From the NCBI GenBank assembly GCA_039807095.1, contig JBDHQM010000002.1, positions 97,261 through 161,260 on the forward strand: DNA of 64,000 nucleotides. The letters run 5' to 3'. The translations under genes were made by a program, and so were the position numbers. This DNA is from Kiritimatiellia bacterium. Lineage in GTDB: Bacteria; Verrucomicrobiota; Kiritimatiellia; CAIVKH01. A model generated the notes under the pieces. The model ran no database searches and was not told the DNA's origin. It saw nothing but the letters and a program-made list of their open reading frames with translations. Shown one piece after another: positions 2,670-36,007 of the stretch (within the stretch, counting starts at the first letter, position 1; every line of letters starts with the position of its first letter).

Positions 2670-2757
2670 TCAAAACTTCACTTCACTTATAGACCTCTAC
2701 CTCCAACACTCAATGTTTCCTTCTTTGTTGAACCAAACAGTTCCTTTTCCTTTGTTT
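2670..2757. repeat. 88-bp direct repeat (target-site duplication copy 2)
   Basis: Identical to 921..1008 and directly abuts the right terminal inverted repeat. Confidence 0.85.
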
Positions 2758-2769
2758 TTTTCCTTCTTT

Positions 2770-3810: not shown

Positions 3811-3911
3811 TGCTGGTCTCCTTTTTGTTTGCAGCTATTGACTGACTGCGTCGCATGTTATCAAACATGTTCAACAAAACAGGAGATCAGCTTTCTCATC
3901 CAACCTACAGT

Positions 3912-12278: not shown

Positions 12279-14556
12279 AAAGCACTCTATGAATCAGTGC
12301 GCCTAAATCGCCCGGGTAGTTGTCGCGGTGTCCCGCAGACTGCGGATCAAAGGGGGTTTCTGCATAAAAATGATAGATTCCGGTACGAGGCAGTTCTATT
12401 CCTGCAGGCGCCACAAGTTCGGCTGTCAATTCGGCGACGGACGGCGGCACATCCAGCCAGACCGCGCCCCCTTCGCCCCACGGCGGCACCACGCGCAGAC
12501 GTTGCACGGGCTTGCTTTGATTCGATGCGGCAACAACGGTCAATTTCACACGCCCCTTGCGCGGAACGGGCCCGACAATGCCGCTACCCTCACGGCTCCA
12601 CTGCCCCGGCACGCGCGTCCCATCGCTCAGCTTCAACGACTGTGTAGGCCCCCACGGCGGGCGCAACGCAGCAGGACCACCATCAAGCAGTTTTTCCTGC
12701 TGGAGTCTCGCGATCTCATTGTCAATTAGCGCGACGCGTGCAAATTGCAACACGCGCTCGTCCTTCTTAAGAACTGCAGGAAGCGCCCGCTTGCTGTGCA
12801 CACGCGATACAGGAATCCGCTCTGTCGAAATAGGTTCAAAGCGAATCCCTTCTTCCAAATCAGGCAGCGAACGCGATGCGACAAACCACACATCCTCTGT
12901 GCTCGCCACGCCGCGAAGCCAGCCGATAAGTTGTTCCCAGTGCTGCGGCTTTCCCTCGCTGCTCCAACCAATGGCGCGCGTCTGGTTATCCACCGCGAAA
13001 GGAAAGCTGTCGGGAAGATAATCGAAGAGAACTAAGCGCGACCCGATGTTCGCTTTTATTTCTTGTACGCGCTCCAGCGCGCCGATTTCTTGGCGAACAA
13101 AATATGGAGCAGGCCACCGCGCTACATTTGCGCTGCCAAGAACAAGTGCCAGGACGCCGCATCCCGCCGCAATCGCGCGGCGAGTTCCGATCCGGGCTTG
13201 AACCCAGCGCGCGGCAGGCAAGAGCAATGCGGGTAGTAACAATAAAACAAACGGCCCCATTCGTCGCTGGCTCCACATTGCCATTTGTTCTGCGCCCTTG
13301 AGATAGGAAAAGACGGGCAGCAACGCGACCGCAAATCCTGCCACCAGACGCGCACGGCCGGCAGTCCTCGAAAATACAAGCGGGATCGCGCACGCGATCG
13401 CAAGAACTGCAGCGGGCCATCGAACAGCGGACCAGAGATCTGTCAGTCCCGTCAACACACGCGGCGATTCTGCCCAGAAAAGCAAGGCCAAGGCGGTAGG
13501 CAATACGGCAACCAATAACCAGGCGGGCGCACGGGGATGCAAGCGATCCAACGCTCGTTGAAATGCGTCTGCCTTACGAAGCCGCCAGATCAGGAGCCAT
13601 AGCAACGCAATGCCAAATACAGCGGCAAATACATCCACGACTTGGTGCGCTTGGCTATATTTGAAATTCACGACCAGCGTGCGCCAGCGCAGCCTGCCAT
13701 ATGGCCCGCAGACATTTGCGGTCAACCAGAGCAGAAATGCAGGGCCGGTTGCGAACAGCGTCACCCCAGATAAAAGCCGCCGCGCTGAACCCCGGTCTAC
13801 TGCCAGCAATACGGCGAGCAACGGAAGCGAGACAACGATCAAAGCAGGATGGAATGCCGGCGCCAAACCGAGTGCGAGATATGCAGCCAGCGATACCGGC
13901 CGCCCCGCAGGCAGCGTCATCCAATGCAGGGCGACCAGACCCGCAAACACTGCGCCACACACTTCCGCATAAAAACCGCGAAACAGCATCGCAGGCAATG
14001 GGGTCGCCAGAAAGAGCGCGCCCGCAAGAAGCAGTCCGGCAACCCCGCCCTCACGACGACCGATTGCGAGCAGAGCCGCTGCAAACAACAGCCCCAAAAG
14101 AGGCGGGAATAGGTCCATGCCTCTCCACGGCAAGAGCTTCTGCAACCCCGCAGCGCCCAGCGGTAGCGTGGGGTAAAAGTACGGCTCTGTTGCCCCGGAT
14201 CCGTCTTGCATCACTCGAAAGGATCGGTCGCGCGTGTTGCGATCCTTGGTGTACGGAAGCAACGTGAGATCCTCCCGAAATTCAGAAGAAACATCGAGAA
14301 ACGTGTGGTCAACATCATTGAAGCCGCGACCATTGGCGAACGAGTACGCCATAAGCCGGTAGCCGGAGTGATCCAATGCGGTGAACGTATCGCCGTGAGG
14401 CCGCAACAAAAGCAACGCAGCCAATAACACCGCCACCCACACGCCAAGCGAACGCCACACACCGCGCACAGACTGAACGCACAGCCAGATGGCGCAGGAA
14501 ATCGAAATCAGGAAAATCGCTAGTGCAAGCCAAGACATCGAGAAGATAGTAGCCAT
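12262..14556 (-). CDS. large polytopic membrane protein with C-terminal periplasmic domain (GT-C/YfhO-like, putative glycosyltransferase)
   Basis: 764 aa. Multiple N-terminal TM helices and a roughly 300-aa soluble C-terminus. Confidence 0.4.
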   Translation of the reverse strand: MATIFSMSWLALAIFLISISCAIWLCVQSVRGVWRSLGVWVAVLLAALLLLRPHGDTFTALDHSGYRLMAYSFANGRGFNDVDHTFLDVSSEFREDLTLLPYTKDRNTRDRSFRVMQDGSGATEPYFYPTLPLGAAGLQKLLPWRGMDLFPPLLGLLFAAALLAIGRREGGVAGLLLAGALFLATPLPAMLFRGFYAEVCGAVFAGLVALHWMTLPAGRPVSLAAYLALGLAPAFHPALIVVSLPLLAVLLAVDRGSARRLLSGVTLFATGPAFLLWLTANVCGPYGRLRWRTLVVNFKYSQAHQVVDVFAAVFGIALLWLLIWRLRKADAFQRALDRLHPRAPAWLLVAVLPTALALLFWAESPRVLTGLTDLWSAVRWPAAVLAIACAIPLVFSRTAGRARLVAGFAVALLPVFSYLKGAEQMAMWSQRRMGPFVLLLLPALLLPAARWVQARIGTRRAIAAGCGVLALVLGSANVARWPAPYFVRQEIGALERVQEIKANIGSRLVLFDYLPDSFPFAVDNQTRAIGWSSEGKPQHWEQLIGWLRGVASTEDVWFVASRSLPDLEEGIRFEPISTERIPVSRVHSKRALPAVLKKDERVLQFARVALIDNEIARLQQEKLLDGGPAALRPPWGPTQSLKLSDGTRVPGQWSREGSGIVGPVPRKGRVKLTVVAASNQSKPVQRLRVVPPWGEGGAVWLDVPPSVAELTAELVAPAGIELPRTGIYHFYAETPFDPQSAGHRDNYPGDLGALIHRVLFVEME

Positions 14557-21775: not shown

Positions 21776-22624
21776 CTACGGTCGCTTCCACATATAAATG
21801 CTGCCACCGATAAGCGTGAGATTAGCCGCGCGCAGCCAAGGATTTCGCCGCAGTGCTCCCAGCACGCGGGCACCGATTCCCACGCGCGCGTCTCCGCGCG
21901 GCAAGCTCAACAAATCCATCGGTGAATAGAACTGCGCAAATCCTGCCTCACGCCCCAGCGAACACAAATCGGCAAAGCTATACCAGTGCACAGCGGGGCG
22001 TGGCGAATAGTCCGCCAGCGTCGGCTTATAGTGCAGATGTTGAAAGACGTAGGATTCTCTTACTGTGCGCGGGAACCAGTTGTAGAACGGCACGCGATAT
22101 TCCCCGTTGCGGCCCAGCGGTGAAAAACGGAGCCGGTTTGTCGTCCGGACAAACAAAACACCCCCCGGCGCCAGCACGCGAAACATTTCCGCCAGACTTT
22201 TACCGGGCGAGTCCACATGCTCCAACACACCCTCCATCAGCACAATTCGCTGCGAGTGATCCGGAAACGGCATTTCTTCCGCAACACCCCATTTCACACG
22301 CGATGCATCGCCCAAATACTCACGCGCCACTGCCAGGCTTTCCTCCACCGGTTCAATGCCCACGGCATCAAACCCCTTTTCAAGCAGCGTTTTCACTGTG
22401 AGCGGGCTCGGCCCGCACCCCACAACCGCCACCGTTTTGAGGCCAGCCGACAGATCAATAAGGCGACGACAGCACTCGAGAATATCGTTAAGCCCGCCAC
22501 GTTTGAGTGTTGTCGGCAAGCGTTCATCAAACCGCTTCCGTTTATGTTCAACGTAGCGAGCAGGCAAATCCGGAACACCGGATGAAAGAGGGCGATTGCG
22601 ATACAAGTCCGAATACTTCATCAC
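21776..22624 (-). CDS. class I SAM-dependent methyltransferase
   Basis: Motif I VVGCGPS. Length and later motifs fit the Methyltransf_11/12 type. Confidence 0.75.
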   Translation of the reverse strand: MMKYSDLYRNRPLSSGVPDLPARYVEHKRKRFDERLPTTLKRGGLNDILECCRRLIDLSAGLKTVAVVGCGPSPLTVKTLLEKGFDAVGIEPVEESLAVAREYLGDASRVKWGVAEEMPFPDHSQRIVLMEGVLEHVDSPGKSLAEMFRVLAPGGVLFVRTTNRLRFSPLGRNGEYRVPFYNWFPRTVRESYVFQHLHYKPTLADYSPRPAVHWYSFADLCSLGREAGFAQFYSPMDLLSLPRGDARVGIGARVLGALRRNPWLRAANLTLIGGSIYMWKRP

Positions 22625-23388
22625 CGGCTCCCTTTCGCGCGCGAATGTTGAGACACGATAAACTCCGCAATGCGCTGTGCTTCGGCATCAAGGTTTGAAA
22701 TGCCACTCGCGCGAAGCACAGGAACGCCTCGACCCTCCAGTGCATCAGCAAGTGCATTCAGTAGGGTCGCGCCCTCCTGAAAACGTGTCTTCATTTTATC
22801 TACGGGTTCACTCCCGAACAGGACAGGGGGCTGTCCGCGTCCTTGTACGCGCTCTACGCAGACATCGGCCGGAGTATCCACACAAATCAAGACATCCGGC
22901 GCGGGCAACAATGCGGCATAGCGCTCAGCGTCCGCAGGTTTGCCCAGCCCGCGATAACCGCGCAACGAGAAGAATCGGTGCGCAAACCCTTCGTCGAGCA
23001 CAACAATTCCATCCAGTTGTTTCGCCAATTGAAATTCAAAGCCTGAAGTCAACACCGCGCGAAATACCGGATCGCGCCAACTCGAATCCGTCCCGGATAC
23101 AGCGAGCCATTCGTGCAGCAACGCGACGAAATCCGCGTGCTCGACTGCAAAGCGATGCCAATCGTTCAGCCCGTGGGGCAGTCCGAGAAAATGCCGGCGC
23201 CAGGCAGGAATGAGCCGGCCACACAGATTGCCAATGACTCCGAAATCACGCGCACGCAAACCCCGCTCAACTACGTCCTCGCGATTCGCAGCCTCGATAC
23301 CGCGCGCGCGCAACGCCTTCACCACCACTCCGCAGAGCGTGCTCTTGCCCGCCGCAGGGACGCCGCAAAACTCTACGCGCATTTTCAC
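22621..23388 (-). CDS. P-loop NTPase, small-molecule kinase-like
   Basis: N-terminal Walker A motif (GVPAAGKST) and a Walker B-like VVLDEGF. 255 aa. Coupled by ATGA overlap to the methyltransferase. Confidence 0.5.
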   Translation of the reverse strand: MKMRVEFCGVPAAGKSTLCGVVVKALRARGIEAANREDVVERGLRARDFGVIGNLCGRLIPAWRRHFLGLPHGLNDWHRFAVEHADFVALLHEWLAVSGTDSSWRDPVFRAVLTSGFEFQLAKQLDGIVVLDEGFAHRFFSLRGYRGLGKPADAERYAALLPAPDVLICVDTPADVCVERVQGRGQPPVLFGSEPVDKMKTRFQEGATLLNALADALEGRGVPVLRASGISNLDAEAQRIAEFIVSQHSRAKGSR

Positions 23389-24749
23389 GAACCGGCCTCA
23401 TTCGGAATCAGCCAAAACGAGTGCTTCGCAAATGGGCGGATATCGTAATTCGCCCGAATATTCGAGACCTCCATCATCCGGCTCATCGTCTCGCGAATTT
23501 CTGCCTCGTCCAGCCCTGGAAATTTCTGGGAGCTGTAACCATCCGACACCAGTTGTGCCTCGCGCCGGGCATGAAGTCGTACCCGCCACATGCGCTTCGC
23601 CTCGGCCAACATCCGTTGTTTTGCAGAAAATTGACCGAGCGGTTTCCTGCCCGCCAATTCCACCAGCTCATTTGTAATCCGTTCCGCGGATGTCACCCCG
23701 GACAGACCGGCCATATAGCGCTTGGCAGTTGTCCACTGTTCGTCCGTCCACAAGACACCTCGCTCGCGAGCCGTCTTTCGCCCCTCCAGTGCAACGAACA
23801 GTTCATCCATCGAAAACACGTTCTCACTCAATGCATTCGGCAAGTGATTTTCATATCGCGGATAGCGCTTGGGGCGATACGCAATCGCCGGAACATCCAG
23901 AAGGAAAGATTCGACGGCGGTTGTGCAGTTAAAGTGAATCACCACTTCCGACGCCAGTATCCACTCGTGCACATTGCCGCTGCCATCCACATGCAAACGC
24001 GGATGCCTCTTGGCCAGCTCCAACCACGGTGCATGGCTTTCAGAGGGATGTGGGCGGACGACCACCGCATGCTTTGGATAACGCGCGAGAATCTCAGGCA
24101 CCATGGCGAGATACGCCTCGTGCATCTCGCGATGCATGGCGATCCACTTCTCCATGTAGCCGGGCTCGTTGTTGATCGGATATCGGGCCAATAATTTCTT
24201 CACTTCTTCCGGCGATTTGAAGTGATTGTGAAAAGCGAAGTTGGTGTTCACCAGCAGCATCGGACCGAACCGCGCGCGCAGTTGCTCGACGGGCTCCCGA
24301 TAAAAGGGCCGCAATTCCGGGCGCAAGAAATCGAAGCGAGGGTTGCCGCACAACGCAATCCGATCAACGTATTGTGGATATTCCTCACAGATCGCCTCGC
24401 GTTGCACCTCACCCCACGCGAAGAATCGCGTCACCTGATCCAGGGATTCGGGGACGATCCGCTGTTTGCGATACAGCCACGCATCAAAAAAAACCAATCC
24501 CTCTTCATCCCACGAAACTAATTCGTGTCCCATCGCCCGGCAGCGGCGAAACCAATCCGTTCGCGTCGCGGCAACGCTCTTGTCCAAATAGATCGCGGGT
24601 TCGACCAGATCCGCATAATCCCAGAGTCGCCCCTGCACGCCGAAAAGGACCGGATGCCCTCTGCTCAAAACATTGAGCGCGAGCCACAGCTTTCCGTGAA
24701 ACTCACGTGCCTTCGTCTCTACAGGTATAATGACAGCCGTCTTCTTCAC
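23385..24749 (-). CDS. TagF/KpsS-fold transferase ('surface carbohydrate biosynthesis protein' type), candidate CMP-ulosonate or polyol-phosphate transferase
   Basis: An RPHP motif and a downstream HFNCTTAVESF block resemble the CDP-glycerol glycerophosphotransferase / capsule-synthesis fold. Located beside neuB and neuA. Confidence 0.45.
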   Translation of the reverse strand: MKKTAVIIPVETKAREFHGKLWLALNVLSRGHPVLFGVQGRLWDYADLVEPAIYLDKSVAATRTDWFRRCRAMGHELVSWDEEGLVFFDAWLYRKQRIVPESLDQVTRFFAWGEVQREAICEEYPQYVDRIALCGNPRFDFLRPELRPFYREPVEQLRARFGPMLLVNTNFAFHNHFKSPEEVKKLLARYPINNEPGYMEKWIAMHREMHEAYLAMVPEILARYPKHAVVVRPHPSESHAPWLELAKRHPRLHVDGSGNVHEWILASEVVIHFNCTTAVESFLLDVPAIAYRPKRYPRYENHLPNALSENVFSMDELFVALEGRKTARERGVLWTDEQWTTAKRYMAGLSGVTSAERITNELVELAGRKPLGQFSAKQRMLAEAKRMWRVRLHARREAQLVSDGYSSQKFPGLDEAEIRETMSRMMEVSNIRANYDIRPFAKHSFWLIPNEAGS

Positions 24750-24758
24750 GCTGCATTC

Positions 24759-27011
24759 CTACAATCCAAATCGCTCCAGGCGCTCAAGGGCCACCCAAAA
24801 ACCCTCTCCACCATTTTTGTGGCCCTGCCAGATTTCCGGCATGAAGGAGGCGCCGGGGCACACCTCCTTCAACTGCGCGCAAAGCGCGGGAAAGTCCAGC
24901 TCGCCCTCGCCCACCTGCAATCCCTCTCCATCGGTTCCACGAGCATCCGCCATGTGCAGATGCGCAGCAAACGGCCCCACCTGATCCACAAACTCCTTGA
25001 ACGAAGTTTTGTAATGATTGCAGGCGAGTTTTGAGTGACTCACATCGAAGCAGAGGCGCAAGTTATTCGCGCGGCAGAACTCCACTGTGTCTTCTGCTTT
25101 GACAAAAAGATTGAGGTACATCTGCCCGCCGAAATACCAGGGGAATGGAGGCAGAGTCTGGCCAATAATCTCGACGCCGTCCGAATCTAACTCCCGCAAA
25201 CTGCGCGCCATAATTTCGTAGCGCTTGCTTACTTCGGGTTCCGACAAAAATCCGTCTCGCGAAAATCCGCCCAAACTAACAATAATGACCGGGCGCGTTG
25301 CCTTCTTAAAGTAGGGCTTCAGCTTTCGCGTCAAGTCCACCACGCGCTGGAGCTCGGCAATGGATCGCGCACGATGCGCTTCATCCGGATTTGAGAGATC
25401 GAGAAGGTGATCGCCATTGAACGTATCGGGACTGTGCACCTTGAAGTCCAGATCAAGAGGCTCGCCGAAGTAGCGCTCATACTCCTCATCCATGTCCTTA
25501 AAGCTCAGATGAAACTCGATGAAGTCGGGATTCGACTTCTTTCGTATTTCCTGGAAGTCGTGCCAACGCACCGTGACCCCCCACGGCCGACTAAAGCGAT
25601 AGTGCCGCGCCTGTGCGATGGGCTGCTCAATGTCACCGGCAAAAAAGAAATCGCCTTTCTTTAGATTGCGCGTGGCGCGCCGACCGATCAGCTCCGGTTT
25701 TCGATTTGGCTGCAACCCCCGCCCGGGGCTCCGAATTTCCACCGCGCTCTCATCAATCTCCTCGCCTTGTGCGATATCGCGTGCAGCAACAAGACTCTTG
25801 GCAAGGTTTGAGCGATTCATCAGTTCGCCCTGCGAAAGCGTGCGCGGATGGCCCGTTCCGATGGATTCTTCAACCTGCCGAATACCCTCAACCATTGCCG
25901 CAAATTCGTCCGGCAACAGACTCGCTTTATGGTCCGATCCTTCGAGGTTTCGGTCCAGCGTGATGTGCTTTTCGATAATCTTCGCGCCCTGCGTCACAGC
26001 CGAAATGGCAACGTGAATACCGCGCTCGTGACCGGAATATCCGACGAGACATCCGCCGATCGAGCGTAACCGGGACAGGTAGGCAAGGTTAATGTCTTTG
26101 AACGGCGCGGGGTACGTTGAATTGCAGTGCAACAGCGCATAGGCACTTCCATTCCGGCGCAGCACCTTCACGGTTTCCGCGATCTCATCCTCCGTGGACA
26201 TACCCGTCGAAAGAATCAACGGCTTATACGTTCGCGCAAGCTTCTCGATGAACGGATGATTCGTCAAATCCGCCGAAGCAACTTTGTATGCCTCCATCCC
26301 GTTGCGCTCCAGCACGTCCAGGCTCTCTTCTTCCCACGGAGTGCACAGCACGGCGAGGTCGAGAGAGCGGGCGTAATCAAACAGCGCAAGCATATCCGGG
26401 ACGGGTAGCTCGAACTTTTCCAACAGATTGAGCGTATATTGAGCGCCGAGGTCCTCCCCCGCCACACCGCCCGGCGTGTTGCGGTACAAATGCGACATTG
26501 AGCGCATCTGAAACTTCACCGCATCTACACGCGCATCGCGCGCCGCGCGGATCAGGCGACGCGCCATCTCCACGCTGCCGTTATGATTGATCCCGACCTC
26601 CGCGATGACGAAAACCGGCCCCTCGTCGCTGATTACGCGGTCACCGATTTTCAGCCCTTCAAACAATCCGCGACGGCGCACCACGCCAATCAAACGGCGG
26701 CGCGCGTCCAGCAGCGGCAGAAATTTTACGCGATCGGAAAAACGACGGCGAATTTCCTCCTGCGATTCGCCTTCCAGTGCCACCGCACAGGAGCGCACGA
26801 GAATCGTGCGAACCGGCTCGCGCAGATTCGCCACAGATTGCTTCATCAGCCAGCGTCGCACGTCGCCGTCGGTCAGAACACCCTCCAGCACACCGTACTC
26901 ATCCACGCCGATAACAAATCCCTTATGATTCGCGTCGAGGCGATGCAACGCCTCCGCAATCGGCGTATCCGCATTCACGCTCCACGGTCGGACATCGCGT
27001 TCGATGATCAT
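24759..27011 (-). CDS. neuB: tri-domain fusion: CBS pair + N-acylneuraminate/ulosonate-9-P synthase (NeuB, with SAF domain) + xylose-isomerase-like TIM-barrel sugar isomerase/epimerase
   Basis: NeuB core motif (VFVIAEVGINHNGS...VKFQ) and a SAF domain. The C-terminal roughly 260 aa has the TIM-barrel AP_endonuc_2-like pattern. The ORF as listed overlaps neuA by 43 bp, so the start was taken at MIIERD. Confidence 0.75.
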   Translation of the reverse strand: MIIERDVRPWSVNADTPIAEALHRLDANHKGFVIGVDEYGVLEGVLTDGDVRRWLMKQSVANLREPVRTILVRSCAVALEGESQEEIRRRFSDRVKFLPLLDARRRLIGVVRRRGLFEGLKIGDRVISDEGPVFVIAEVGINHNGSVEMARRLIRAARDARVDAVKFQMRSMSHLYRNTPGGVAGEDLGAQYTLNLLEKFELPVPDMLALFDYARSLDLAVLCTPWEEESLDVLERNGMEAYKVASADLTNHPFIEKLARTYKPLILSTGMSTEDEIAETVKVLRRNGSAYALLHCNSTYPAPFKDINLAYLSRLRSIGGCLVGYSGHERGIHVAISAVTQGAKIIEKHITLDRNLEGSDHKASLLPDEFAAMVEGIRQVEESIGTGHPRTLSQGELMNRSNLAKSLVAARDIAQGEEIDESAVEIRSPGRGLQPNRKPELIGRRATRNLKKGDFFFAGDIEQPIAQARHYRFSRPWGVTVRWHDFQEIRKKSNPDFIEFHLSFKDMDEEYERYFGEPLDLDFKVHSPDTFNGDHLLDLSNPDEAHRARSIAELQRVVDLTRKLKPYFKKATRPVIIVSLGGFSRDGFLSEPEVSKRYEIMARSLRELDSDGVEIIGQTLPPFPWYFGGQMYLNLFVKAEDTVEFCRANNLRLCFDVSHSKLACNHYKTSFKEFVDQVGPFAAHLHMADARGTDGEGLQVGEGELDFPALCAQLKEVCPGASFMPEIWQGHKNGGEGFWVALERLERFGL

Positions 27012-27724
27012 GTCGGATTCTCCCCGCGTTGAAGCAGAAAACTCGCCCACTCCAAATCCATTTCGGAATCAATATCTACTCCAGCCTCTTCAGTCATTTT
27101 GAACAAAACGATTTTGCCGCCCAACCGATTGTTTCCCTGCCGCAGCACCCACGGTTTGAAAATGTAAATGGATCCGTTCTCCCGATAGCGTGGCGCCATG
27201 TCCTGACGCCGCGGGCGTACACGCCAGTCGCGATTGACCGCGACCGCAGATCCATCCTGTTCTTCCCAAAGAAACAGATGAGAGGGCGAAACAGAGACAA
27301 CAGAATCGGCATTCGATTCCTCTAGCAAGGCAATAGCGGAATCAATATCCATTCCGGTTCGAATCGGACACGTTGCTTGTAGAAATACGACGAGGTCAGG
27401 GTCTCCGCCCCGGTCTGCCGCGATGCAATCCAACGCGTGCAACAGCGCAGCCTCGGATGTTGTCGAGTCTTCCGCCAAGACCGCCGGGCGATCAATAATC
27501 TGTGCGCCGGCATCTTGTGCTGCGCACTTAATCTCGGCGTCATCCGTGCTGACATACACACAAGAGACGCGTTGAGACTCAAGCGCATCGGCGACGCTCC
27601 ACGCAATCAGTGGGCGCCCCGCTACAGGACGCACATTTTTTCGCGGCACACCCTTGGATCCGCCGCGCGCCGGGATGATGGCGACGACGTTTTCGAATCG
27701 CTGACTGTGCTGGGAGGGGTTCAT
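27008..27724 (-). CDS. neuA: acylneuraminate (CMP-ulosonate) cytidylyltransferase
   Basis: IPARGGSKGVPRKN motif of the CTP_transf_3 family. Confidence 0.85.
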   Translation of the reverse strand: MNPSQHSQRFENVVAIIPARGGSKGVPRKNVRPVAGRPLIAWSVADALESQRVSCVYVSTDDAEIKCAAQDAGAQIIDRPAVLAEDSTTSEAALLHALDCIAADRGGDPDLVVFLQATCPIRTGMDIDSAIALLEESNADSVVSVSPSHLFLWEEQDGSAVAVNRDWRVRPRRQDMAPRYRENGSIYIFKPWVLRQGNNRLGGKIVLFKMTEEAGVDIDSEMDLEWASFLLQRGENPT

Positions 27725-29481
27725 GCTGAGGCTTCGGCGTTCTTCGCCTTTTTCTCCACCACAAAATCGCCAAGCACCAACACGTCAATCTCCGTACCCA
27801 GGAAGCACGCAACCGCCTGCTCCGGAGTTTGGACAATCGGCTGCCCCTTTACATTGAAGGATGTATTCAACAGCACAGGACAGCCGGTCTTCTTATGAAA
27901 CGCAGTGAGCAACTCGTAGAAGCGCTCGTTGTTTTCCCGACCGACCGACTGCACCCGGCACGAATCATCCACATGGACCGTTGCCGGAATCGCCGACTTC
28001 TTCGCCGGCTGCACTTTGCACGCGATCAGCATGTGCGGACTTTCCTGCCCGATGTCGAAGTATTCATGCACATATTCCTTCAAACACGCCGGAGCAAGCG
28101 GCCGGAAATACTCGCGGAACTTCACGTTGTCGTTAATGTGATCGCGCATCGCCTCCGGATACGGCTTGGCAAGAATACTGCGATTGCCGAGCGCGCGCGG
28201 ACCGAATTCTGCTCCGCCCTGATACCAGCCAATCACCTTCCCCGCAGCCAGTTTGTCAGCAACATCGGCGTAAAGATTTGGCGGACGCGTGTATGCCACG
28301 CCGGCACTCTTGAGCGCCTGCTCCATTTCGGCCGACGTGTAGTCGCCGTGCAGATAATAGTTGTGGTTTTTGACCGGCCGGTAATTCGGATCATGTGCGC
28401 GCTGCGCAAGGAAACACGCGCCGATCGCCAGTCCGGCGTCACCCGATGCAGGCTGCACGAAGATTTCGTCAAATATATGCTCGCGCTCAATCCGCCCGTT
28501 CATCGAGCAGTTCAGCGCAACGCCGCCGCTCAAGCACAGATACTTGATTCCCGTATCTTTGCGCGCATTGCGCAGCACACCCAACACAACCTCCTCAAGG
28601 CGCCGCTGCAAGGCAGCGGCAATATCTTTATGGTGCTGATTTAGCGTTGCGACATCGTACTTCCGGCGCGGGCCGAACACTTCGACAAAGCGGTCCGACA
28701 CCCATTTATTCCGCTCATAATAATACGCCATCCATTCCGGATTGATGGTGATAGTGTATTTCCCGTCATACTGAATGATATCTTCAAAAAACGAATAGTA
28801 GCTCCGCGTCTGCCCCGGCACGATATGATCGGAATCACCAAAGCACGCCAGCGCCATGATGATGCCCTCATGGTGCACATTCTTCCACCCGAGATAGCAG
28901 GTGATCGCGGCATACACCAATCCGAGTGAATGCGGGTAATCGTAGCGGTCATACAAGACCTCAATCGCGCCTGCCCGCCCGACGCCCAGTTTCATCGTCT
29001 TGTTGTCGCCGATGCCGTCAATGCTCAGCAACACAGCATCCTGAAATCCGCTCGGATAATACGAACTCGCCAGATGTGTGAGGTGGTGATCGAAATAGGA
29101 AATCTTTCCCGTAAAACCGGTCTTCTCGCGGATGATCTCTTCCACATTGAACATCTCTTTGATGCGCTCAAACTCCTGAATCATCATGCCCACGCGTTTG
29201 GGGTCGCGAATTGCCGCCTCGAGATACGTTCTGCGAATGCACGCCTCCGGATCCCCGCCGAATGCAATTTCGTCCACATCGGCCATCGTCAGCTTTGCCT
29301 TCCGTAGGCAATCCTGAATTGCATCTGTCGGAAACAGCCGGCTGTGCTTATCCAGTGAATAGCGCTCCTGCTCGCACGCGGCGATCAGCTTGCCATCCAC
29401 CATAATCGCGGCTGCTGTATCGTGTGCCAGATACTTGATCCCCAAAATCACTTTTTTCATTCGATTCATCCTTTCCAACAT
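27721..29481 (-). CDS. carbamoyltransferase (NodU/CmcH family); start probably at 29460
   Basis: FDHHLTHL metal-binding motif and a YrdC/Kae1-like C-terminal region. Confidence 0.8.
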   Translation of the reverse strand: MLERMNRMKKVILGIKYLAHDTAAAIMVDGKLIAACEQERYSLDKHSRLFPTDAIQDCLRKAKLTMADVDEIAFGGDPEACIRRTYLEAAIRDPKRVGMMIQEFERIKEMFNVEEIIREKTGFTGKISYFDHHLTHLASSYYPSGFQDAVLLSIDGIGDNKTMKLGVGRAGAIEVLYDRYDYPHSLGLVYAAITCYLGWKNVHHEGIIMALACFGDSDHIVPGQTRSYYSFFEDIIQYDGKYTITINPEWMAYYYERNKWVSDRFVEVFGPRRKYDVATLNQHHKDIAAALQRRLEEVVLGVLRNARKDTGIKYLCLSGGVALNCSMNGRIEREHIFDEIFVQPASGDAGLAIGACFLAQRAHDPNYRPVKNHNYYLHGDYTSAEMEQALKSAGVAYTRPPNLYADVADKLAAGKVIGWYQGGAEFGPRALGNRSILAKPYPEAMRDHINDNVKFREYFRPLAPACLKEYVHEYFDIGQESPHMLIACKVQPAKKSAIPATVHVDDSCRVQSVGRENNERFYELLTAFHKKTGCPVLLNTSFNVKGQPIVQTPEQAVACFLGTEIDVLVLGDFVVEKKAKNAEASA

Positions 29482-29492
29482 TTCGTAAATTT

Positions 29493-30389
29493 CTATATCG
29501 CTCGCGTCGGCTCTTCCCCCGATTTAACCGCAGAATTCACCGCACGTGACAAATAAATACCCGCAGGCGAAACGTAAAATTCACGCGGCGCATCACCAGG
29601 ACCGATATCCGTTCCCTTCATAAACTTTCGGATTTGATGGAAGTGCAGATACATCATCTCTTCGCCGTTCGCACCGTATACCCGGCCCTCACACCAGCGC
29701 ATGCTCAACGATGGGTCCTCCAGCATCAAGCGCTGATGTTTTCCGCTCGTCGTCCACACCCGCTCCCACCACACGCGTGGCAGCGGCAACCGGCGAATCC
29801 AGCGCGTGGTCAACCGGCCAATGGCGCTGAGCTGATACCACTGCAGCACCTTGGATAACCCGTCTTCATCCACTCGCCAGTATCTGGCAGAGTCCTCTAC
29901 CCGTTCCTGAATTTTCGAAACCCGGCGAAAAAGGTTGTTCCATGCCTCCTGATTCCGAAACAGGGTGAAGTGTCCCGATATACGGTTCGGACGCGCGGAG
30001 ATCACGTCGTAATTCGCCAGAAGCTCCTCCGTCAGAAAGTGCCGCAGATTTCCCCAGATCACATCCAGATCGCAGCATCCCCAGAAATCGTACCCCTTCA
30101 ATTCCTCCTCGAAAATCAAACCGCTCATCATTTTGAGATCGCACAGCTTATAGGTGAATGAGGGATTCACCCGAATTCGATACCCCGACGCCGCGCTTGC
30201 GCGAGTATTGAAACGATCAATATCCATCGGAAAAAACTTAACGTTTTCCGGCGTCGAGGCGGGCGCGGATTGATCGGTGAAGATCAGCCAATCCACATCG
30301 GGGTTGAAACGACACGAATGTAGCAAGGCCGGCATCCAAAATGGCAATGGACCGAACCACACGTTGACAAGCGCTATGCGCGCACTCAT
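29493..30389 (-). CDS. putative glycosyltransferase-like protein (DxD-containing, GT-A-like)
   Basis: CCDLDVIW DxD-like motif. Lies among the GT genes. Confidence 0.3.
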   Translation of the reverse strand: MSARIALVNVWFGPLPFWMPALLHSCRFNPDVDWLIFTDQSAPASTPENVKFFPMDIDRFNTRASAASGYRIRVNPSFTYKLCDLKMMSGLIFEEELKGYDFWGCCDLDVIWGNLRHFLTEELLANYDVISARPNRISGHFTLFRNQEAWNNLFRRVSKIQERVEDSARYWRVDEDGLSKVLQWYQLSAIGRLTTRWIRRLPLPRVWWERVWTTSGKHQRLMLEDPSLSMRWCEGRVYGANGEEMMYLHFHQIRKFMKGTDIGPGDAPREFYVSPAGIYLSRAVNSAVKSGEEPTRAI

Positions 30390-32217: not shown

Positions 32218-33109
32218 CCGGCACCCCTACGATTGGCTCCTCGGCGATCACTCCACGAACTGAGCGCTGTTCGACTGCACGCCAGTAGTGTGCGCGTAGC
32301 TTCGTTTTCATCCCGGTTTCAGTGCTTCGCGTCAATTGCCCGCCGTGCTGGCGATATAACATTTGCGTTTCCGGCAGGGAGAACACAGGGATATCCGCCT
32401 TTGCTGCGCGCCGCAAGAAGTCCCGATCGCCCGCACACGGCCACGGAGCGAAGCCGCCCAGGCGGGTGAGGACTGTCTTGGAAAGCCCAATGGCGCCCTT
32501 GACCTGGCGCGGATGTTTCTTCTCGGCGGGCTGTAGCCGGTCATCGCAAATCGCCGCCATCGGACGCACAAGAAATGCGGGCGTTATGGCGGCGCATTGA
32601 CGACAAAAAGAATAGAAGGACGCGAGAGCGCCGGGCACCAGCGCATCGTCAGCATCCACGAACAGGACAAACTCACCGCGGGATGCCAGCAGTAGAGAGT
32701 TGCGAATAACAAACAGTCCACAATGGGACCGGAAGTTCAGCACGCGAACGCGTCTACGCATCTCCGATGAAAGTGCGGCGATATACCGGTGTGCTGCGGA
32801 AAGCGTAGCTTCACAACAGTCTATCGCGATCAACACTTCCAGCTCCACCCCAACCGGCGCAGGTTGGTGCAGGATGGAATCCAAGCAATCTGCCAAATAG
32901 CGATCTACAGCCCGGGCAGCGATCAGCACAGAAAACACGCCCGGATCGGATTCGCGGACCAAGGAATTCACGGGACGACAAGATTGATTGATATTGCGCT
33001 CCCACGCTGCAGCCTGCGCAGCAGCCGAACGCGCAGCTACCATCCCGCTTGCGTATCGCCACAATGCGCCCGCAATCATGACGAACCTCCAGGGATATGG
33101 GCCGCCCAA
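32210..33109 (-). CDS. glycosyltransferase family 2-like (start probably 33079)
   Basis: VLIAARAVDRYL...FVDADD motifs. Confidence 0.6.
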   Translation of the reverse strand: MGGPYPWRFVMIAGALWRYASGMVAARSAAAQAAAWERNINQSCRPVNSLVRESDPGVFSVLIAARAVDRYLADCLDSILHQPAPVGVELEVLIAIDCCEATLSAAHRYIAALSSEMRRRVRVLNFRSHCGLFVIRNSLLLASRGEFVLFVDADDALVPGALASFYSFCRQCAAITPAFLVRPMAAICDDRLQPAEKKHPRQVKGAIGLSKTVLTRLGGFAPWPCAGDRDFLRRAAKADIPVFSLPETQMLYRQHGGQLTRSTETGMKTKLRAHYWRAVEQRSVRGVIAEEPIVGVPDV

Positions 33110-33885
33110 AAATCGGGCTCATATTTTCCCCACGCATGGCACCCGAACGGCAAACGCCCGTTCATGCGAGCCACATAGCTCGATGGCTCCAGTTCCAGCG
33201 CAAAATACATCGCTTCCTCTTCGCGAGGAATCCGGAAACCGGGAGGCGCAAACATTGTCCAGAACATATCTTCATTTCCCGGCCACTGCGCAGCGAACTT
33301 CCCGTGCGTCATCAGGGTCTGGCGAAAACCCGGTATACGGCGCAGCGAGAAACCGCCATTGCCCACGCGAAAATCACGGCGATACCAGAGTCGCGCCAAT
33401 CCCGGCCACTGCACCAACCGTGGCCGCGCCTCGCGCACATGGCGATGGCGCAATAGGTCCCGACTGCCCCACGGCGCGCCGATATAGTCATACCCACGCG
33501 CGCACCAGTCCTCCAATTCATCGCGGAAAACAAAGGCATCCAACTGATAAATCAGCAAGTATTCCCACCCGCGAAATCGGGCATAAAAATCATCGGAAAG
33601 CAGCAGGCGGCTGTATGCGTCAACGCTCACAAATGCCGATGCTGGGAAATACTCGGTTTTCACTCCCTCAAACTCCGGAGGCAGGATCAAACCTTCCGGG
33701 CAAATGATGCGGATGTCGTGGCGGCCCAAAATACGGCGGCACTGTGCAAGCGACAGGCGCTCTTCCGCGCTGAGCGTCTCCTTGAAGCAGGGCACTAATA
33801 CGACACAACTCATTTTGTCATCCACACGTTCCCGCACACCCGGCGCATCACAGCCATACGTCACGCCGAGTTGACGATCTCCCAT
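33076..33885 (-). CDS. DUF5672-like glycan-cluster protein (putative GT-A-like transferase)
   Basis: YQLDAFVFRD DxD-type block. Typical companion of GT2 genes. Confidence 0.45.
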   Translation of the reverse strand: MGDRQLGVTYGCDAPGVRERVDDKMSCVVLVPCFKETLSAEERLSLAQCRRILGRHDIRIICPEGLILPPEFEGVKTEYFPASAFVSVDAYSRLLLSDDFYARFRGWEYLLIYQLDAFVFRDELEDWCARGYDYIGAPWGSRDLLRHRHVREARPRLVQWPGLARLWYRRDFRVGNGGFSLRRIPGFRQTLMTHGKFAAQWPGNEDMFWTMFAPPGFRIPREEEAMYFALELEPSSYVARMNGRLPFGCHAWGKYEPDFWAAHIPGGSS

Positions 33886-35174
33886 TGATGCGACACCAGA
33901 ACCCCCGAATTATCGCTGATCTTTTGCAGTTTGCCCGTCCCGTAAAAATCTCCGTCAACGACGAATAACTCCAGGCCGTCAATCAATTCATCCGCAACGG
34001 TTTTGCCAACCTTGCAGAACAGATGCACCACATAGCGTCCCGGAAGCAGCGGCAACTTTGGAATTGTGAGGCGAATCGTGCCGCGCCGCCCCAAGCGAAG
34101 GGTCTCCGGATGCGAGACGCGCGAAAAACACAGGAATTTTTCCTGACGGGTCTCACCCGATGCCACTCGAAAATAAATGAAGCACGGTTGATCGTTCATC
34201 ACGGTGCGCTCGTAATCCAACTCAACCGTAATGGTTTCGCCAGACTGCGCCGCGTTGATGACGACGTTTCGCTCGTTACGAATTCGATAACCAGTAAAAC
34301 GCACACTGCCGTCCCCGCTCCGGTCGGTTCGTTCGTTGATGGGCAGATGCGACGCCTTCGGTAAATGCGTTTTCAGATACGCTTCTGTAATTTCCTGCAC
34401 ATTGCCGATCATCTGGCACTCACCGCCGCGCAAGAGAACAGCCCGGGAACAGAGCGCCTGAATCGCGGCCATGTTGTGACTGACAAATAAAATCGTACGC
34501 CCCTCTTTTGAGACGTCTTGCATACGGCCAAGGCATTTCGCCTGAAACTCCGCATCACCTACCGCGAGCACCTCGTCCACGATCAATATCTCTGGCTCCA
34601 AATGCGCCGCCACCGCAAAGGCAAGTCGAACGTACATTCCGCTCGAATAACGCTTCACCGGTGTATCTATGAACGCGCTCAACTCGGCGAAGGCAACAAT
34701 CTCGTCCAGTTTGCGGGCGACTTCTCGCTCCTTCATGCCGAGAATCGTGCCGTTCATAAATACATTTTCTCGCCCGGTCAGCTCCGGATGGAAACCCGTA
34801 CCCACCTCAAGCAACGAACCAATTCGACCGCGAATTCGCACCTCGCCAGAGGTGGGTTCTGTGATGCGACTCAGAATCTTCAGGAGCGTGGATTTGCCCG
34901 CGCCATTGCGGCCGATGATGCCGACAACTTCTCCCGGCTGCACATCGAATGAAACATCGCGCAAGGCCCAGAAGTCCTGGTTTCCAGCCTGTTCTGCCTC
35001 GACCCGGCGACGCTCAGTCGCGCCGTATCCGATTTTTTCAAACGCCTTCCGCGGATCGCGGCCGCGCAGTTTGTGCCACCAATACTTGGTTTCATCAATT
35101 AGCGTGTGCCGCCCGATCGTCCCCAATCGGTATCGCTTCGAAAGATTGTGAATGGAAATTGCCGCCTCGCTCAT
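33861..35174 (-). CDS. wzt: ABC transporter ATP-binding protein Wzt with C-terminal glycan-binding domain
   Basis: Walker A GRNGAGKST, signature YSSGM, Walker B ILIVDE. A C-terminal extension of about 170 aa as in Wzt/TagH-type exporters. Confidence 0.85.
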   Translation of the reverse strand: MSEAAISIHNLSKRYRLGTIGRHTLIDETKYWWHKLRGRDPRKAFEKIGYGATERRRVEAEQAGNQDFWALRDVSFDVQPGEVVGIIGRNGAGKSTLLKILSRITEPTSGEVRIRGRIGSLLEVGTGFHPELTGRENVFMNGTILGMKEREVARKLDEIVAFAELSAFIDTPVKRYSSGMYVRLAFAVAAHLEPEILIVDEVLAVGDAEFQAKCLGRMQDVSKEGRTILFVSHNMAAIQALCSRAVLLRGGECQMIGNVQEITEAYLKTHLPKASHLPINERTDRSGDGSVRFTGYRIRNERNVVINAAQSGETITVELDYERTVMNDQPCFIYFRVASGETRQEKFLCFSRVSHPETLRLGRRGTIRLTIPKLPLLPGRYVVHLFCKVGKTVADELIDGLELFVVDGDFYGTGKLQKISDNSGVLVSHQWEIVNSA

Positions 35175-36007
35175 ATCGTATCCACAAACGTGCGTTGAAC
35201 TTTATTGAAGAGGAAAAGGCCGGACACCAAAACAAGCGCAGTGACAAACCAGCTCAAGCCCAGCCCCCAAAGCTCCGGGCTCCCCCGCCCCGTGAGTGCA
35301 TAGCGGCTGAACTCCACAACCGCGGTCATCGGATTAAGCCACAGCACAAACTTCAGGATCGGTTTCACAACCAGTTTGGCGGGATACACAATTGGCGTGC
35401 CATACATCCACAACTGCACCAGAAACGGCAGAGCGAAACGCAGGTCGCGATACTTGATCGTCGCCGCCGAGACCCACAATCCGAATCCGAGTCCGAGCAG
35501 TCCCGTCTGTAGAATCAACAGAGGCAGGAAGAAAACCCACGCATTCGGCTCCATCGCGCTCCCGCGGAAATAATACCAAAAGTAGAAGCCGAGAAACAAA
35601 AGCGAGTTCAGTGCAAGATGGGCAAACTGCACAAACACGCCGGACAACGGCATGATCAGGCGCGGGAAATACACCTTTGTTAGGATATTTGTGTTGGACA
35701 CCAGCGATGTCGCGCCTTGATTCAACACGCCCTGAAAATAATTCCAAAACAGCGTTCCGCTCATGTAGAAAATGAACTGCGGAATTCCATCTGTCGAAAT
35801 CTTTGCCACCGTTCCGAAGATCACCGTAAAGACGATCGTCGTAAGCAGCGGCTGAATCACAAACCAAAGCGGCCCGATGATTGTCTGGCGATACACCGCG
35901 GTCAGCTCGCGCTTGACCCACAGGGTCAAAAGATCACGGTATTCCCACAGCTCGCGCACCGGAATCCGCCACCAGGGACTGTTTGCTCGAATAACGGTTG
36001 TCTGCAT
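35171..36007 (-). CDS. wzm: ABC-2 type polysaccharide exporter permease Wzm
   Basis: Six-TM ABC-2 permease, ATGA-coupled to wzt. Confidence 0.85.
   Translation of the reverse strand: MQTTVIRANSPWWRIPVRELWEYRDLLTLWVKRELTAVYRQTIIGPLWFVIQPLLTTIVFTVIFGTVAKISTDGIPQFIFYMSGTLFWNYFQGVLNQGATSLVSNTNILTKVYFPRLIMPLSGVFVQFAHLALNSLLFLGFYFWYYFRGSAMEPNAWVFFLPLLILQTGLLGLGFGLWVSAATIKYRDLRFALPFLVQLWMYGTPIVYPAKLVVKPILKFVLWLNPMTAVVEFSRYALTGRGSPELWGLGLSWFVTALVLVSGLFLFNKVQRTFVDTI

Follow-up and report, generated by a model that had tools for sequence, protein, structure and literature searches.

Whereas many pathways for the biosynthesis of bacterial sialic-acid-like sugars are known, the known transferases for these sugars are few. 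Among the closest described ones are those of T. forsythia, where deletion of Tanf_01245 or TFUB4_00887 leaves the O-glycan without Pse5Am7Gra or without a Leg derivative, and CMP-NulO is still present in the pool of nucleotide sugars; together with BFO_1060, these are proteins of 442–445 aa (PMC5420450). The model NF046086 (BFO_1060 family glycosyltransferase) covers these Pse/Leg-derivative transferases, and the genetics done on them is also the sole functional anchor of a sister family, TIGR04396 (surf_polysacc, “surface carbohydrate biosynthesis protein”), which is very large (at E ≤ 1e-3, it takes in 7,664 clusters of 50% identity) and has no solved structure. Literature searches on TIGR04396, on DUF6625, on DUF5672 or on nonulosonic combined with glycerophosphotransferase found nothing useful. 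CMP-activated sugars are also used by other GT-B enzymes. First, a D/E-D/E-G motif and an HP motif are required for catalysis and CMP-Neu5Ac binding in the sialyltransferases NmB-polyST and PmST1 (Freiberger et al. 2007, PMC2169525). Second, WbbB (GT99) adds a single ulosonic acid cap to an O-antigen exported by an ABC transporter (PMC12887879).

Here we analysed a window of 64,000 nucleotides, that is the whole stretch of DNA under study, from an uncultured Kiritimatiellia-like bacterium, in which a 454-aa protein had been proposed to be a TagF/KpsS-fold transferase acting either on a CMP-activated ulosonic acid or on a polyol phosphate. The target gene is indeed found at 23385..24749 on the minus strand, like all the features described below, with a GTG start and a possible AGGA ribosome-binding site ~7 nt upstream of it. 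Since an identical 454-aa protein exists in the database, together with full-length relatives of equal length that are up to 80% identical, we consider this open reading frame to be a real gene. No transmembrane segment was found in its product. The two gene junctions differ slightly from the original prediction. On one side, the adjacency to a NeuB-fusion gene stands, but the spacer up to the stop codon of this gene measures 9 nt (24750–24758) instead of 10 bp. On the other side, the target is coupled to a P-loop gene as proposed, but not by ATGA. The junction, which reads GTGAAAATG, holds a GTGA overlap, provided that the GTG at 23388 is the P-loop start; alternatively, this gene starts at the ATG at 23382, 2 nt past the target stop, with which an identical 253-aa database protein (P0260) is consistent. 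Under either start, the two genes are tightly coupled.

The gene following the 9-nt spacer (24759..27050) encodes a CBS-NeuB-SAF-AP_endonuc_2 fusion ending in a xylose-isomerase-like TIM barrel, presumed to be the synthase of the ulosonic acid donor (Pfam scores of 267 bits for NeuB, 64 for AP_endonuc_2, 46 for CBS and 44 for SAF). Translation probably begins with the ATG at 27011 and yields a protein of 750 aa, to which an identical database protein of this length (P0295) corresponds. Among the NCBIfam models, those for NeuB (321 bits) and for PseI (251 bits) are matched, both under cutoff. Next comes a NeuA/KdsB-type cytidylyltransferase gene (27008..27724; CTP_transf_3, 77 bits), the presumed CMP-ulosonate synthetase, whose match to the NCBIfam PseF model (116.8 bits) does not reach the cutoff of 205.7 bits. 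Directly upstream of it lies a gene for a NodU/CmcH-type O-carbamoyltransferase (27721..29481; Carbam_trans_N and Carbam_trans_C). The P-loop protein (22621..23388) gave weak AAA_33 and Thymidylate_kin matches and has a nucleoside-monophosphate-kinase fold, with an AF2 model of pLDDT 92.3 for which the top Foldseek matches are thymidylate, adenylate and UMP-CMP kinases (TMq ~0.5). Directly downstream of it, we found a SAM-dependent methyltransferase gene (21776..22624; Methyltransf_11, 58.6 bits). Finally, at 33861..36007 lie genes for Wzt, an ABC ATPase carrying the carbohydrate-binding domain Wzt_C (ABC_tran and Wzt_C), and for the ABC-2 permease Wzm (ABC2_membrane), by which the glycan pathway of the locus is recognised as dependent on an ABC transporter.

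By scanning 37 open reading frames of the window with Pfam, we found GT2, GT4, DUF6625, DUF5672 and similar matches, and none to the sialyltransferase, Maf or Capsule_synth families. Thus, as far as these 37 ORFs go, the locus holds no classical sialyltransferase, as had been claimed. PseB/C-, LegB/C- and NeuC-type genes are absent from the locus, so the donor of the target is probably neither Pse nor Leg; no Epimerase_2 gene was found in the window either.

Compared with the NCBIfam models, the target matches TIGR04396 with 345.9 bits (E 3.8e-103) against a curated cutoff of 125 bits, residues 6–425 aligning to profile positions 1–426 of 427. Judged by this profile, the target is a full-length TIGR04396 member, in keeping with the suggestion that the “surface carbohydrate biosynthesis protein” model would recognise it. 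All the invariant positions of the family are present in the target (E82, E83, W112-G113, G135/R138/D140, R232-P233-H234-P235-x-E237, C275-T276-T277 and E280), each being 95–100% conserved among 253 relatives. The target also matches NF046086 colinearly, with residues 8–298 on profile positions 4–298 of 365 (83.8 bits, E 1.2e-23), and so do all 42 aligned relatives (best E 1.4e-37). Given that 83.8 bits falls short of the curated cutoff of 200 bits and that the final ~67 model positions are unmatched, the profile comparison places the target as an NF046086 homologue in a sister family rather than as a member. In one family fusion protein of 945 aa (P0240), the extra part consists of FG-GAP/beta-propeller-like repeats only and is uninformative.

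Then, we looked at the gene neighbourhoods of 61 TIGR04396-family loci, each of at least 15 kb. NeuB is found in 45 of them (74%), CTP_transf_3 in 49 (80%) and both in 43, an association that spans many phyla and gene orders. A P-loop kinase-fold gene is present in 14 of the 61 loci, always downstream of the TIGR04396 gene and on the same strand. Genuine Epimerase_2 genes co-occur with the family gene in 25 loci, and in 24 a complete set of NeuB, a separate Epimerase_2 and CTP_transf_3 stands beside it. Taking family, homology, neighbourhoods and the fold described below together, we consider it likely that the target transfers, as predicted, the ulosonic acid that its NeuB and NeuA neighbours would supply in CMP-activated form.

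The AlphaFold (AF2) model of the target (pLDDT 94.1, pTM 0.92) consists of two Rossmann-like domains in a GT-B fold. Searching the PDB with Foldseek returned 187 matches at E ≤ 1e-3, the best 50 of which are all GT-B proteins; among these 50 there is no GT-B bacterial sialyltransferase. TagF (3l7j) is a significant match (E 4e-7, TMq 0.46), and UDP-GlcNAc 2-epimerases including NeuC (5xvs) rank slightly above it (E 1.6e-8 to 4e-7), so the fold search alone picks no subfamily. PDB sequence searches with the single target or with a profile of 42 sequences gave only chance matches at E ~1.

These epimerase matches raise the question of whether the target could be a biosynthetic enzyme instead, namely a NeuC/PseG-like nucleotide-sugar hydrolase or 2-epimerase feeding an aldose to the NeuB domain. 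The step of substrate supply is formally vacant, as Epimerase_2 is missing from the window and from 11 of 11 loci with a fusion synthase, and hhalign pairs the GNPRFD segment of the family with the G-x-P-x-ID block of epimerases. However, the same program gave a probability of only 2.9% for the family against 29 NeuC-like Epimerase_2 sequences, and Pfam Epimerase_2 (PF02350) is weakly matched by just 2 of the 42 relatives (best E 0.011). Moreover, the family cannot simply stand in for NeuC given that 24 of the 61 loci hold their own Epimerase_2 beside the family gene, and T. forsythia mutants deleted for members of the homologous family still contain fully modified CMP-NulO. In the fusion loci, the TIM barrel fused to the synthase suggests itself more readily as the supplier of the substrate. 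We therefore rejected the family as a NeuC replacement on the hhalign result and the co-occurrence with Epimerase_2, and regard a biosynthetic role of the target as unlikely.

A second alternative is a TagF/TagB-type phosphotransferase moving glycerol-phosphate, ribitol-phosphate or another phospho-group from a CDP donor to a glycan. In Pfam searches the target itself matched no family even at E ≤ 1, including the Glyphos_transf and Capsule_synth families that had been suggested for it, but a relative sharing 42% identity with it (P0063) passes the Glyphos_transf (PF04464) gathering score of 22.1 bits with 26.7 bits over residues 78–311. Glyphos_transf is matched by 6 of the 42 relatives and, with a best E of 3e-5, is the closest Pfam family among them; the TarB primase is weakly matched by 2 of 42. 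The AF2 model bears out a GT-B fold; these matches and the significant structural match to TagF are compatible with the predicted TagF-like form of it without singling it out. As for the chemistry, no TagD-, TarI- or TarJ-type gene for CDP-polyol synthesis was found in the scanned ORFs, where the only cytidylyltransferase-type gene near the target belongs to the NeuA/KdsB type. Around the family genes, NeuB and CTP_transf_3 predominate, and the closest homologues that have been studied are nonulosonic acid transferases. The locus thus lends no support to the polyol-phosphate option of the original prediction, and we judge a phosphotransferase very unlikely.

Three conserved blocks stand out in the target when it is compared with the 253 relatives. 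The first, D81-E82-E83-G84 (24498..24509), is a D/E-D/E-G-type motif in a loop behind beta-strand 76–80 of the N-terminal Rossmann domain; E82 is conserved in 99%, E83 in 100%, G84 in 94% and D81 in 78% of the relatives, with Cys replacing the latter in 21%. The second, R232-P233-H234-P235-S236-E237 (24039..24056), contains the predicted RPHP motif (residues 232–235, DNA 24045–24056) and follows the first beta-strand (228–233) of the C-terminal Rossmann domain in the AF2 model; R232 and P235 are conserved in 100%, P233 and E237 in 99% and H234 in 97%. The third block, H272...C275-T276-T277...E280 (23910..23936), comes after strand 269–272 (H272 95%, C275 100%, T276 96%, T277 99%, E280 99%) and probably forms the N-terminus of a nucleotide/ribose-binding helix, since GT-B donor sites typically look so. 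By motif comparison, (D/C)EEG and RPHPxE correspond to the D/E-D/E-G and HP motifs known from bacterial sialyltransferases of the GT-B type. HP dipeptides are commonplace in proteins, a caveat for any argument from this motif, and only H234-P235 of the three in the target is conserved. No DxD motif is present in the target.

In GT107/GT99 (KpsS/KpsC-type) enzymes, the motif is defined as HP plus QxxxKD. The target has no QxxxKD, and Capsule_synth (PF05159) is weakly matched by only 2 of the 42 relatives, the best match (E 0.0074) scoring 16.2 bits where the cutoff demands 20. With no significant match and no such motif, the specific KpsS/KpsC (GT107) relationship that had been put forward was rejected.

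The conserved residues and the neighbourhoods also bear on a third alternative, in which the target would be a GT-B glycosyltransferase for an ordinary UDP-, GDP- or dTDP-sugar that lies next to NeuB and NeuA merely by sharing a glycan locus with them. Many other glycosyltransferases are encoded in the locus, 10 of the 61 family loci (~16%) have neither NeuB nor CTP_transf_3 within 10 kb, and B. subtilis SpsB provides a precedent, being the counter-example by which gene adjacency and a TagB-like domain are insufficient proof. Nevertheless, such an enzyme is quite improbable in view of the association with NeuB and CTP_transf_3 in most loci across many phyla and gene orders, of the conserved HP and acidic motifs, which are those of CMP-sugar-using GT-B enzymes, and of the homology to the T. 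forsythia transferases.

The transferase reading is based on the observed family, fold, motif conservation, T. forsythia homology and NeuB/NeuA association; from there we infer the donor identity, the acceptor, the roles of residues, the stereochemistry and the number of residues added (one versus several). In the proposed scheme, the fusion synthase would make a 3-deoxy-2-ulosonic acid, which the NeuA-type cytidylyltransferase would activate with CMP. The target, presumably a cytoplasmic GT-B glycosyltransferase that is either soluble or peripherally attached to the membrane, would then move the ulosonic acid from the CMP donor onto a hydroxyl of a lipid-linked glycan. Assembly of this acceptor may be the task of the GT2 and GT4 enzymes encoded in the locus, and export by the Wzm/Wzt ABC transporter would follow the transfer. 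By analogy with the metal-independent GT-B sialyltransferases on which this mechanism is modelled, an E82/E83 carboxylate of the (D/C)-E-E-G loop in the N-terminal domain could serve as the base toward the acceptor hydroxyl, while H234, placed in the RPHPxE loop of the C-terminal domain, could contact and stabilise the leaving CMP phosphate. One option is that a single residue is added, for example as a chain-terminating cap recognised by the Wzt carbohydrate-binding domain.

The fusion synthase deserves attention of its own. This ~750-aa CBS-NeuB-SAF-TIM-barrel protein is at least 55% identical over Kiritimatiellia, Lentisphaerae, cyanobacteria, Chloroflexi, CPR and Bacteroidota, and it marks a distinct NeuC-less module in which the adjacent P-loop kinase is often present. 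The cultivable Desulfopila sp. IMCC35008 has the same module, at 57% identity. Since no NeuC-type epimerase is ever present in fusion-synthase loci, the aldose substrate may come from the fused isomerase-like barrel itself. Also, a carbamoyltransferase is found in 4 of the 11 fusion-synthase loci versus 1 of the 34 other NeuB loci. A neighbour-joining (NJ) tree joins the target in one clade with 10 of the 11 proteins encoded at fusion-synthase loci, a sequence grouping that fits a donor-linked specificity. When looking in reverse from the synthase, one of two fusion-synthase loci (L086) was without a TIGR04396 gene nearby. We tentatively raise the possibility, which we hold to be rather doubtful, that the target is the dedicated transferase of an undescribed four-part ulosonic-acid module with a new donor specificity and a new role for the kinase. 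Such a module would consist of the fusion synthase, the NeuA-like cytidylyltransferase, the TIGR04396 transferase and the P-loop NMP-kinase-fold protein, sometimes with a carbamoyltransferase. Its product could be a KDN-like or other non-aminated ulosonic acid, possibly phosphorylated or carbamoylated, rather than Neu5Ac, Leg or Pse, and the coupled kinase might then act in sugar phosphorylation or CMP removal.

A probable CMP-ulosonate transferase gives the surface-glycan locus of this bacterium a testable annotation, with the EEG and RPHPxE residues standing out as targets for mutagenesis. TIGR04396 enzymes could also serve glyco-engineering with non-sialic nonulosonic acids. The assignment of the target is itself an expected annotation and reveals no new kind of system; more interest lies in the donor sugar and in the kinase coupled to the target.

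How does the target compare with the known systems? Like the T. forsythia transferases, it has ~290 colinear homologous residues, a similar length (454 versus 442–445 aa), no transmembrane segment, an HP motif within a domain of the TagB/GT-B type and a gene immediately beside CMP-nonulosonate biosynthesis genes. Unlike them, it stays under the NF046086 cutoff and its donor is probably neither of theirs. With TagF, TagB and TarB (Glyphos_transf) it shares a GT-B-like two-domain fold, a cytidine-nucleotide-activated donor, presumed for the target, and an apparently membrane-peripheral location, but the target has no Pfam match and no CDP-polyol genes in its locus, and it is predicted to transfer a glycosyl group from a CMP-ketoside whereas they form phosphodiesters.

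The GT-B sialyltransferases (the CAZy GT38 polysialyltransferases, GT52 and GT80 PmST1) resemble the target in the GT-B fold, the lack of DxD and the CMP-sugar donor, which is presumed for the target. In both, an acidic motif lies in the N-terminal domain and HP opens the C-terminal domain, with a spacing of 151 residues in the target, ~125 in NmB-polyST and ~170 in PmST1 (PMC2169525). The likeness to GT38, GT52 and GT80 is in motif and fold only, as no sequence similarity is detectable by Pfam or by PDB sequence and profile searches. Finally, KpsS/KpsC (GT107), WbbB (GT99), KpsS1 (GT118) and KrkA (GT140) are retaining enzymes with a modified GT-B fold that use CMP-activated Kdo or Pse; the target differs from them in showing no significant similarity and no QxxxKD, and its N-terminal Rossmann domain is full-size in the model while that of GT99 and GT107 is reduced (PMC12887879). 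Capping in the style of WbbB nonetheless offers a plausible functional analogy for this locus.

The 454-aa open reading frame at 23385..24749 (minus strand) starts with a GTG codon, with a possible ribosome-binding site (AGGA) about 7 nt 5' of it. Since an identical protein is recorded in the databases and its relatives are full-length, of equal length and up to 80% identical, we consider it a real gene. The upstream NeuB fusion gene stops 9 nt before its start. At the other end, the ATGA coupling to the P-loop gene claimed in the original prediction did not hold, as the junction reads GTGAAAATG, that is either a GTGA overlap or an ATG start after a 2-nt gap. The observation of the gene as a whole was nevertheless confirmed, and the RPHP motif was found at residues 232-235.

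The protein had no Pfam match even at E<=1. In NCBIfam, it matched over its full length the model that had been proposed as a check, TIGR04396 "surface carbohydrate biosynthesis protein", with 345.9 bits for a cutoff of 125 bits. It also matched NF046086 "BFO_1060 family glycosyltransferase" (E 1.2e-23, 83.8 bits), under the 200-bit cutoff of that model, which was matched by 42/42 aligned relatives (best E 1.4e-37). TIGR04396 and NF046086 are sister families. Clustered at 50% identity, TIGR04396 comprises 7,664 clusters at E<=1e-3 and 2,929 at E<=1e-30. The family is already known and the placement of this protein in it is new; because of this membership, the finding stands as a sound annotation.

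Sequence and profile searches for a relative of known structure found none. The AlphaFold2 model built from the 42-sequence alignment (pLDDT 94.1, pTM 0.92) has two Rossmann-like alpha/beta domains, a helical C-terminal extension and a small terminal beta-hairpin. Foldseek returned 187 PDB matches at E<=1e-3, and all of the best 50 were GT-B proteins. These were led by UDP-GlcNAc 2-epimerases (E 1.6e-8, TMq about 0.48), as would be expected of a NeuC/PseG-like biosynthetic enzyme; aligning 253 family members with 29 NeuC-like epimerases in hhalign gave a probability of 2.9%, and we regard this reading as unlikely. TagF appeared from rank 20 onward (E 4e-7, TMq 0.46). Weak Pfam matches among the 42 relatives were to the GT-B families LpxB (8), Glyphos_transf (6, best E 3e-5), Capsule_synth (2) and Epimerase_2 (2), and one relative, 42% identical to our protein, scored above the gathering cutoff of Glyphos_transf in a match covering residues 78-311. 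Taken together, the Pfam matches in relatives, Foldseek and hhalign make TagF/TagB the nearest Pfam family. This is in line with the TagF part of the original prediction; a relationship specific to KpsS/KpsC found no support.

We then considered the residues conserved among 253 relatives. A first block, D81 (78%, Cys in 21%), E82 (99%), E83 (100%) and G84 (94%), is located in the model in an N-domain loop following strand 76-80. A second, R232 (100%), P233 (99%), H234 (97%), P235 (100%) and E237 (99%), comes after the C-domain's first strand. C275 (100%), T276 (96%), T277 (99%) and E280 (99%) are conserved as well. The first two blocks match the D/E-D/E-G and HP motifs that GT38, GT52 and GT80 sialyltransferases have in common. 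NmB-polyST is inactive when E153 or G154 is mutated, and changes at H278 or P279 leave it with a lower Vmax and a higher Km for CMP-Neu5Ac; in PmST1, it is H311 that forms a bond with the CMP phosphate (PMC2169525). An ordinary NDP-sugar glycosyltransferase would share the GT-B fold; given motifs that correspond to those of CMP-sialic acid-using enzymes, we find it quite improbable. The protein lacks a transmembrane segment, a DxD motif and a QxxxKD motif. Helix 376-399 is basic, with 8 Lys/Arg, and could conceivably mediate membrane association.

Among 61 related loci from many phyla, each 15 kb or longer, a NeuB homologue lay within 10 kb of the TIGR04396 gene in 45 (74%) and a CTP_transf_3 homologue in 49 (80%), both being present in 43 and one or both in 51. 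A TagF-type polyol-phosphate transferase would agree with the nearest Pfam family; set beside these neighbourhoods, it is very unlikely. In 24/61 loci the gene stands beside NeuB, a NeuC-like Epimerase_2 and CTP_transf_3. As the CMP-nonulosonate pathway is complete in these loci, the family adds a function rather than standing in for a pathway step. Two of these loci, L083 and L084, share the operon NeuB-Epimerase_2-CTP_transf_3-2-Hacid_dh-Asn_synthase-TIGR04396 (about 4.3-11.4 kb). Its two additional enzymes, a 2-hydroxyacid dehydrogenase and an asparagine-synthase-like amidotransferase, could provide glyceroyl and acetamidino decoration as in T. forsythia Pse5Am7Gra. In a Rhodospirillales genome (L060), two TIGR04396 paralogues (3148-4557 and 9938-11341), about 5 kb apart, share one NeuB/CTP_transf_3 pair, which points to a second transfer step or a second acceptor.

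In the window, the gene belongs to a same-strand block of about 30 kb (about 6.3-36 kb), bordered by the housekeeping genes hisD, uvrA, groEL, dnaK and ruvB and by two transposase genes (DDE_Tnp_1 and IS110 families; 1016-3810, minus strand) near one end. From the 36-kb end, all on the minus strand, come Wzm and a Wzt with a Wzt_C carbohydrate-binding domain, DUF5672 (33076-33885), three GT2 and DUF6625 (29493-30389), a NodU-type carbamoyltransferase, a NeuA/KdsB-type cytidylyltransferase, the CBS-NeuB-SAF-AP_endonuc_2 fusion synthase (24759-27050), our gene, the P-loop protein, a methyltransferase, then three GT4, an MBOAT and further glycosyltransferases. The whole is a surface-glycan locus of the ABC-transporter-dependent type. 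Three large, consecutive open reading frames (8791-14556, minus strand; 603, 571 and 764 aa) encode polytopic membrane proteins, each with 7-12 predicted hydrophobic segments and without a Pfam or NCBIfam match at the thresholds applied; within the glycan locus they may be of a GT-C-like or polymerase/ligase-like kind. DUF6625 and DUF5672 also adjoin the fusion-synthase/TIGR04396 module in Desulfopila sp. IMCC35008 (L002/L005); a literature search on their function found none. The window contains one TIGR04396, one NeuB and one CTP_transf_3 gene and no NeuC-like Epimerase_2. Gene order is unchanged in the nearest relatives, Kiritimatiellia metagenome-assembled genomes with 80% identity.

The fusion synthase, annotated until now as "N-acetylneuraminate synthase family protein", is about 750 aa long, its third domain, SAF, preceding the xylose-isomerase-like TIM barrel AP_endonuc_2. 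Its sequence is conserved at 55% identity or more between Kiritimatiellia, Lentisphaerae, cyanobacteria, Chloroflexi, CPR and Bacteroidota. Its NeuB domain scored under both curated cutoffs (NeuB, 321 vs 400 bits; PseI, 251 vs 340 bits), and the cytidylyltransferase under that of PseF. Compared with 34 family loci carrying a stand-alone NeuB, the 11 fusion loci lacked Epimerase_2 (0/11 vs 24/34) and 2-Hacid_dh (0/11 vs 20/34) and more often had the P-loop protein (7/11 vs 6/34) and the carbamoyltransferase (4/11 vs 1/34). In a neighbour-joining tree without bootstrap, our protein forms one clade with 10 of the 11 family proteins of fusion loci. Together, these data point to a distinct ulosonic-acid module. 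Neu5Ac, Leg and Pse are unlikely as its product, which may be an undescribed ulosonic acid. Given the missing epimerase, the fused barrel may supply the aldose. Reverse searches from the fusion synthase gave a mixed picture: in a Lentisphaerae locus, a remote family member scoring 101 bits lay two genes upstream, and a Chitinophagaceae locus had none within 10 kb. The translationally coupled P-loop protein (22621-23388, minus strand) is modelled with a nucleoside-monophosphate-kinase fold (pLDDT 92.3) in which a large insert, made of helices, spans about residues 34-121; its top structural matches are thymidylate, adenylate and UMP-CMP kinases (TMq about 0.5). Homologues occur in 14/61 loci, downstream on the same strand, adjacent or one gene off, with enrichment in fusion loci. 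A role in sugar phosphorylation or CMP removal is speculative, and a new ulosonic-acid pathway that has its own transferase and a kinase coupled to it is a tentative proposal that we rate as rather doubtful.

Family, fold, motifs, homology and neighbourhood all support the CMP-ulosonate transferase of the original prediction. We therefore consider it fairly probable that the protein acts in the cytoplasm as a metal-independent GT-B glycosyltransferase, transferring a CMP-activated ulosonic acid to a lipid-linked glycan intermediate. The two genes upstream would make the donor, and the acceptor intermediate would come from this locus; the base would be E82/E83, with H234 stabilising CMP as it leaves. 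We infer these partners and residue roles, as well as the stereochemistry and whether one or several residues are added.

The sister family offers a known system for comparison. BFO_1060 of Tannerella forsythia 92A2 is orthologous to TFUB4_00887, which with Tanf_01245 forms a candidate transferase pair (442-445 aa) for Leg/Pse derivatives; deleting either gene yields an S-layer O-glycan without nonulosonic acid, while the nucleotide-sugar pool still holds the fully modified CMP-nonulosonate (PMC5420450). This places the T. forsythia protein at the transfer step rather than in biosynthesis or modification. One caution is B. subtilis SpsB: although it carries a TagB-type domain and adjoins CMP-Leg genes, Leg transfer does not require it (PMC7439481). 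If only one residue is added, it could, in analogy to WbbB GT99 (PMC12887879), form a terminal cap that the Wzt carbohydrate-binding domain reads. In our locus, a kinase-like gene is followed directly by a SAM methyltransferase (21776-23388, minus strand), and Wzt (33861-35174, minus strand) carries its carbohydrate-binding domain at the C-terminus. WbdD-type proteins terminate ABC-transporter-dependent O-antigen chains with phosphate/methyl caps. The arrangement of kinase-like gene, methyltransferase and Wzt domain resembles that system, except that the fold of the kinase is here of the P-loop type instead of the protein-kinase type.
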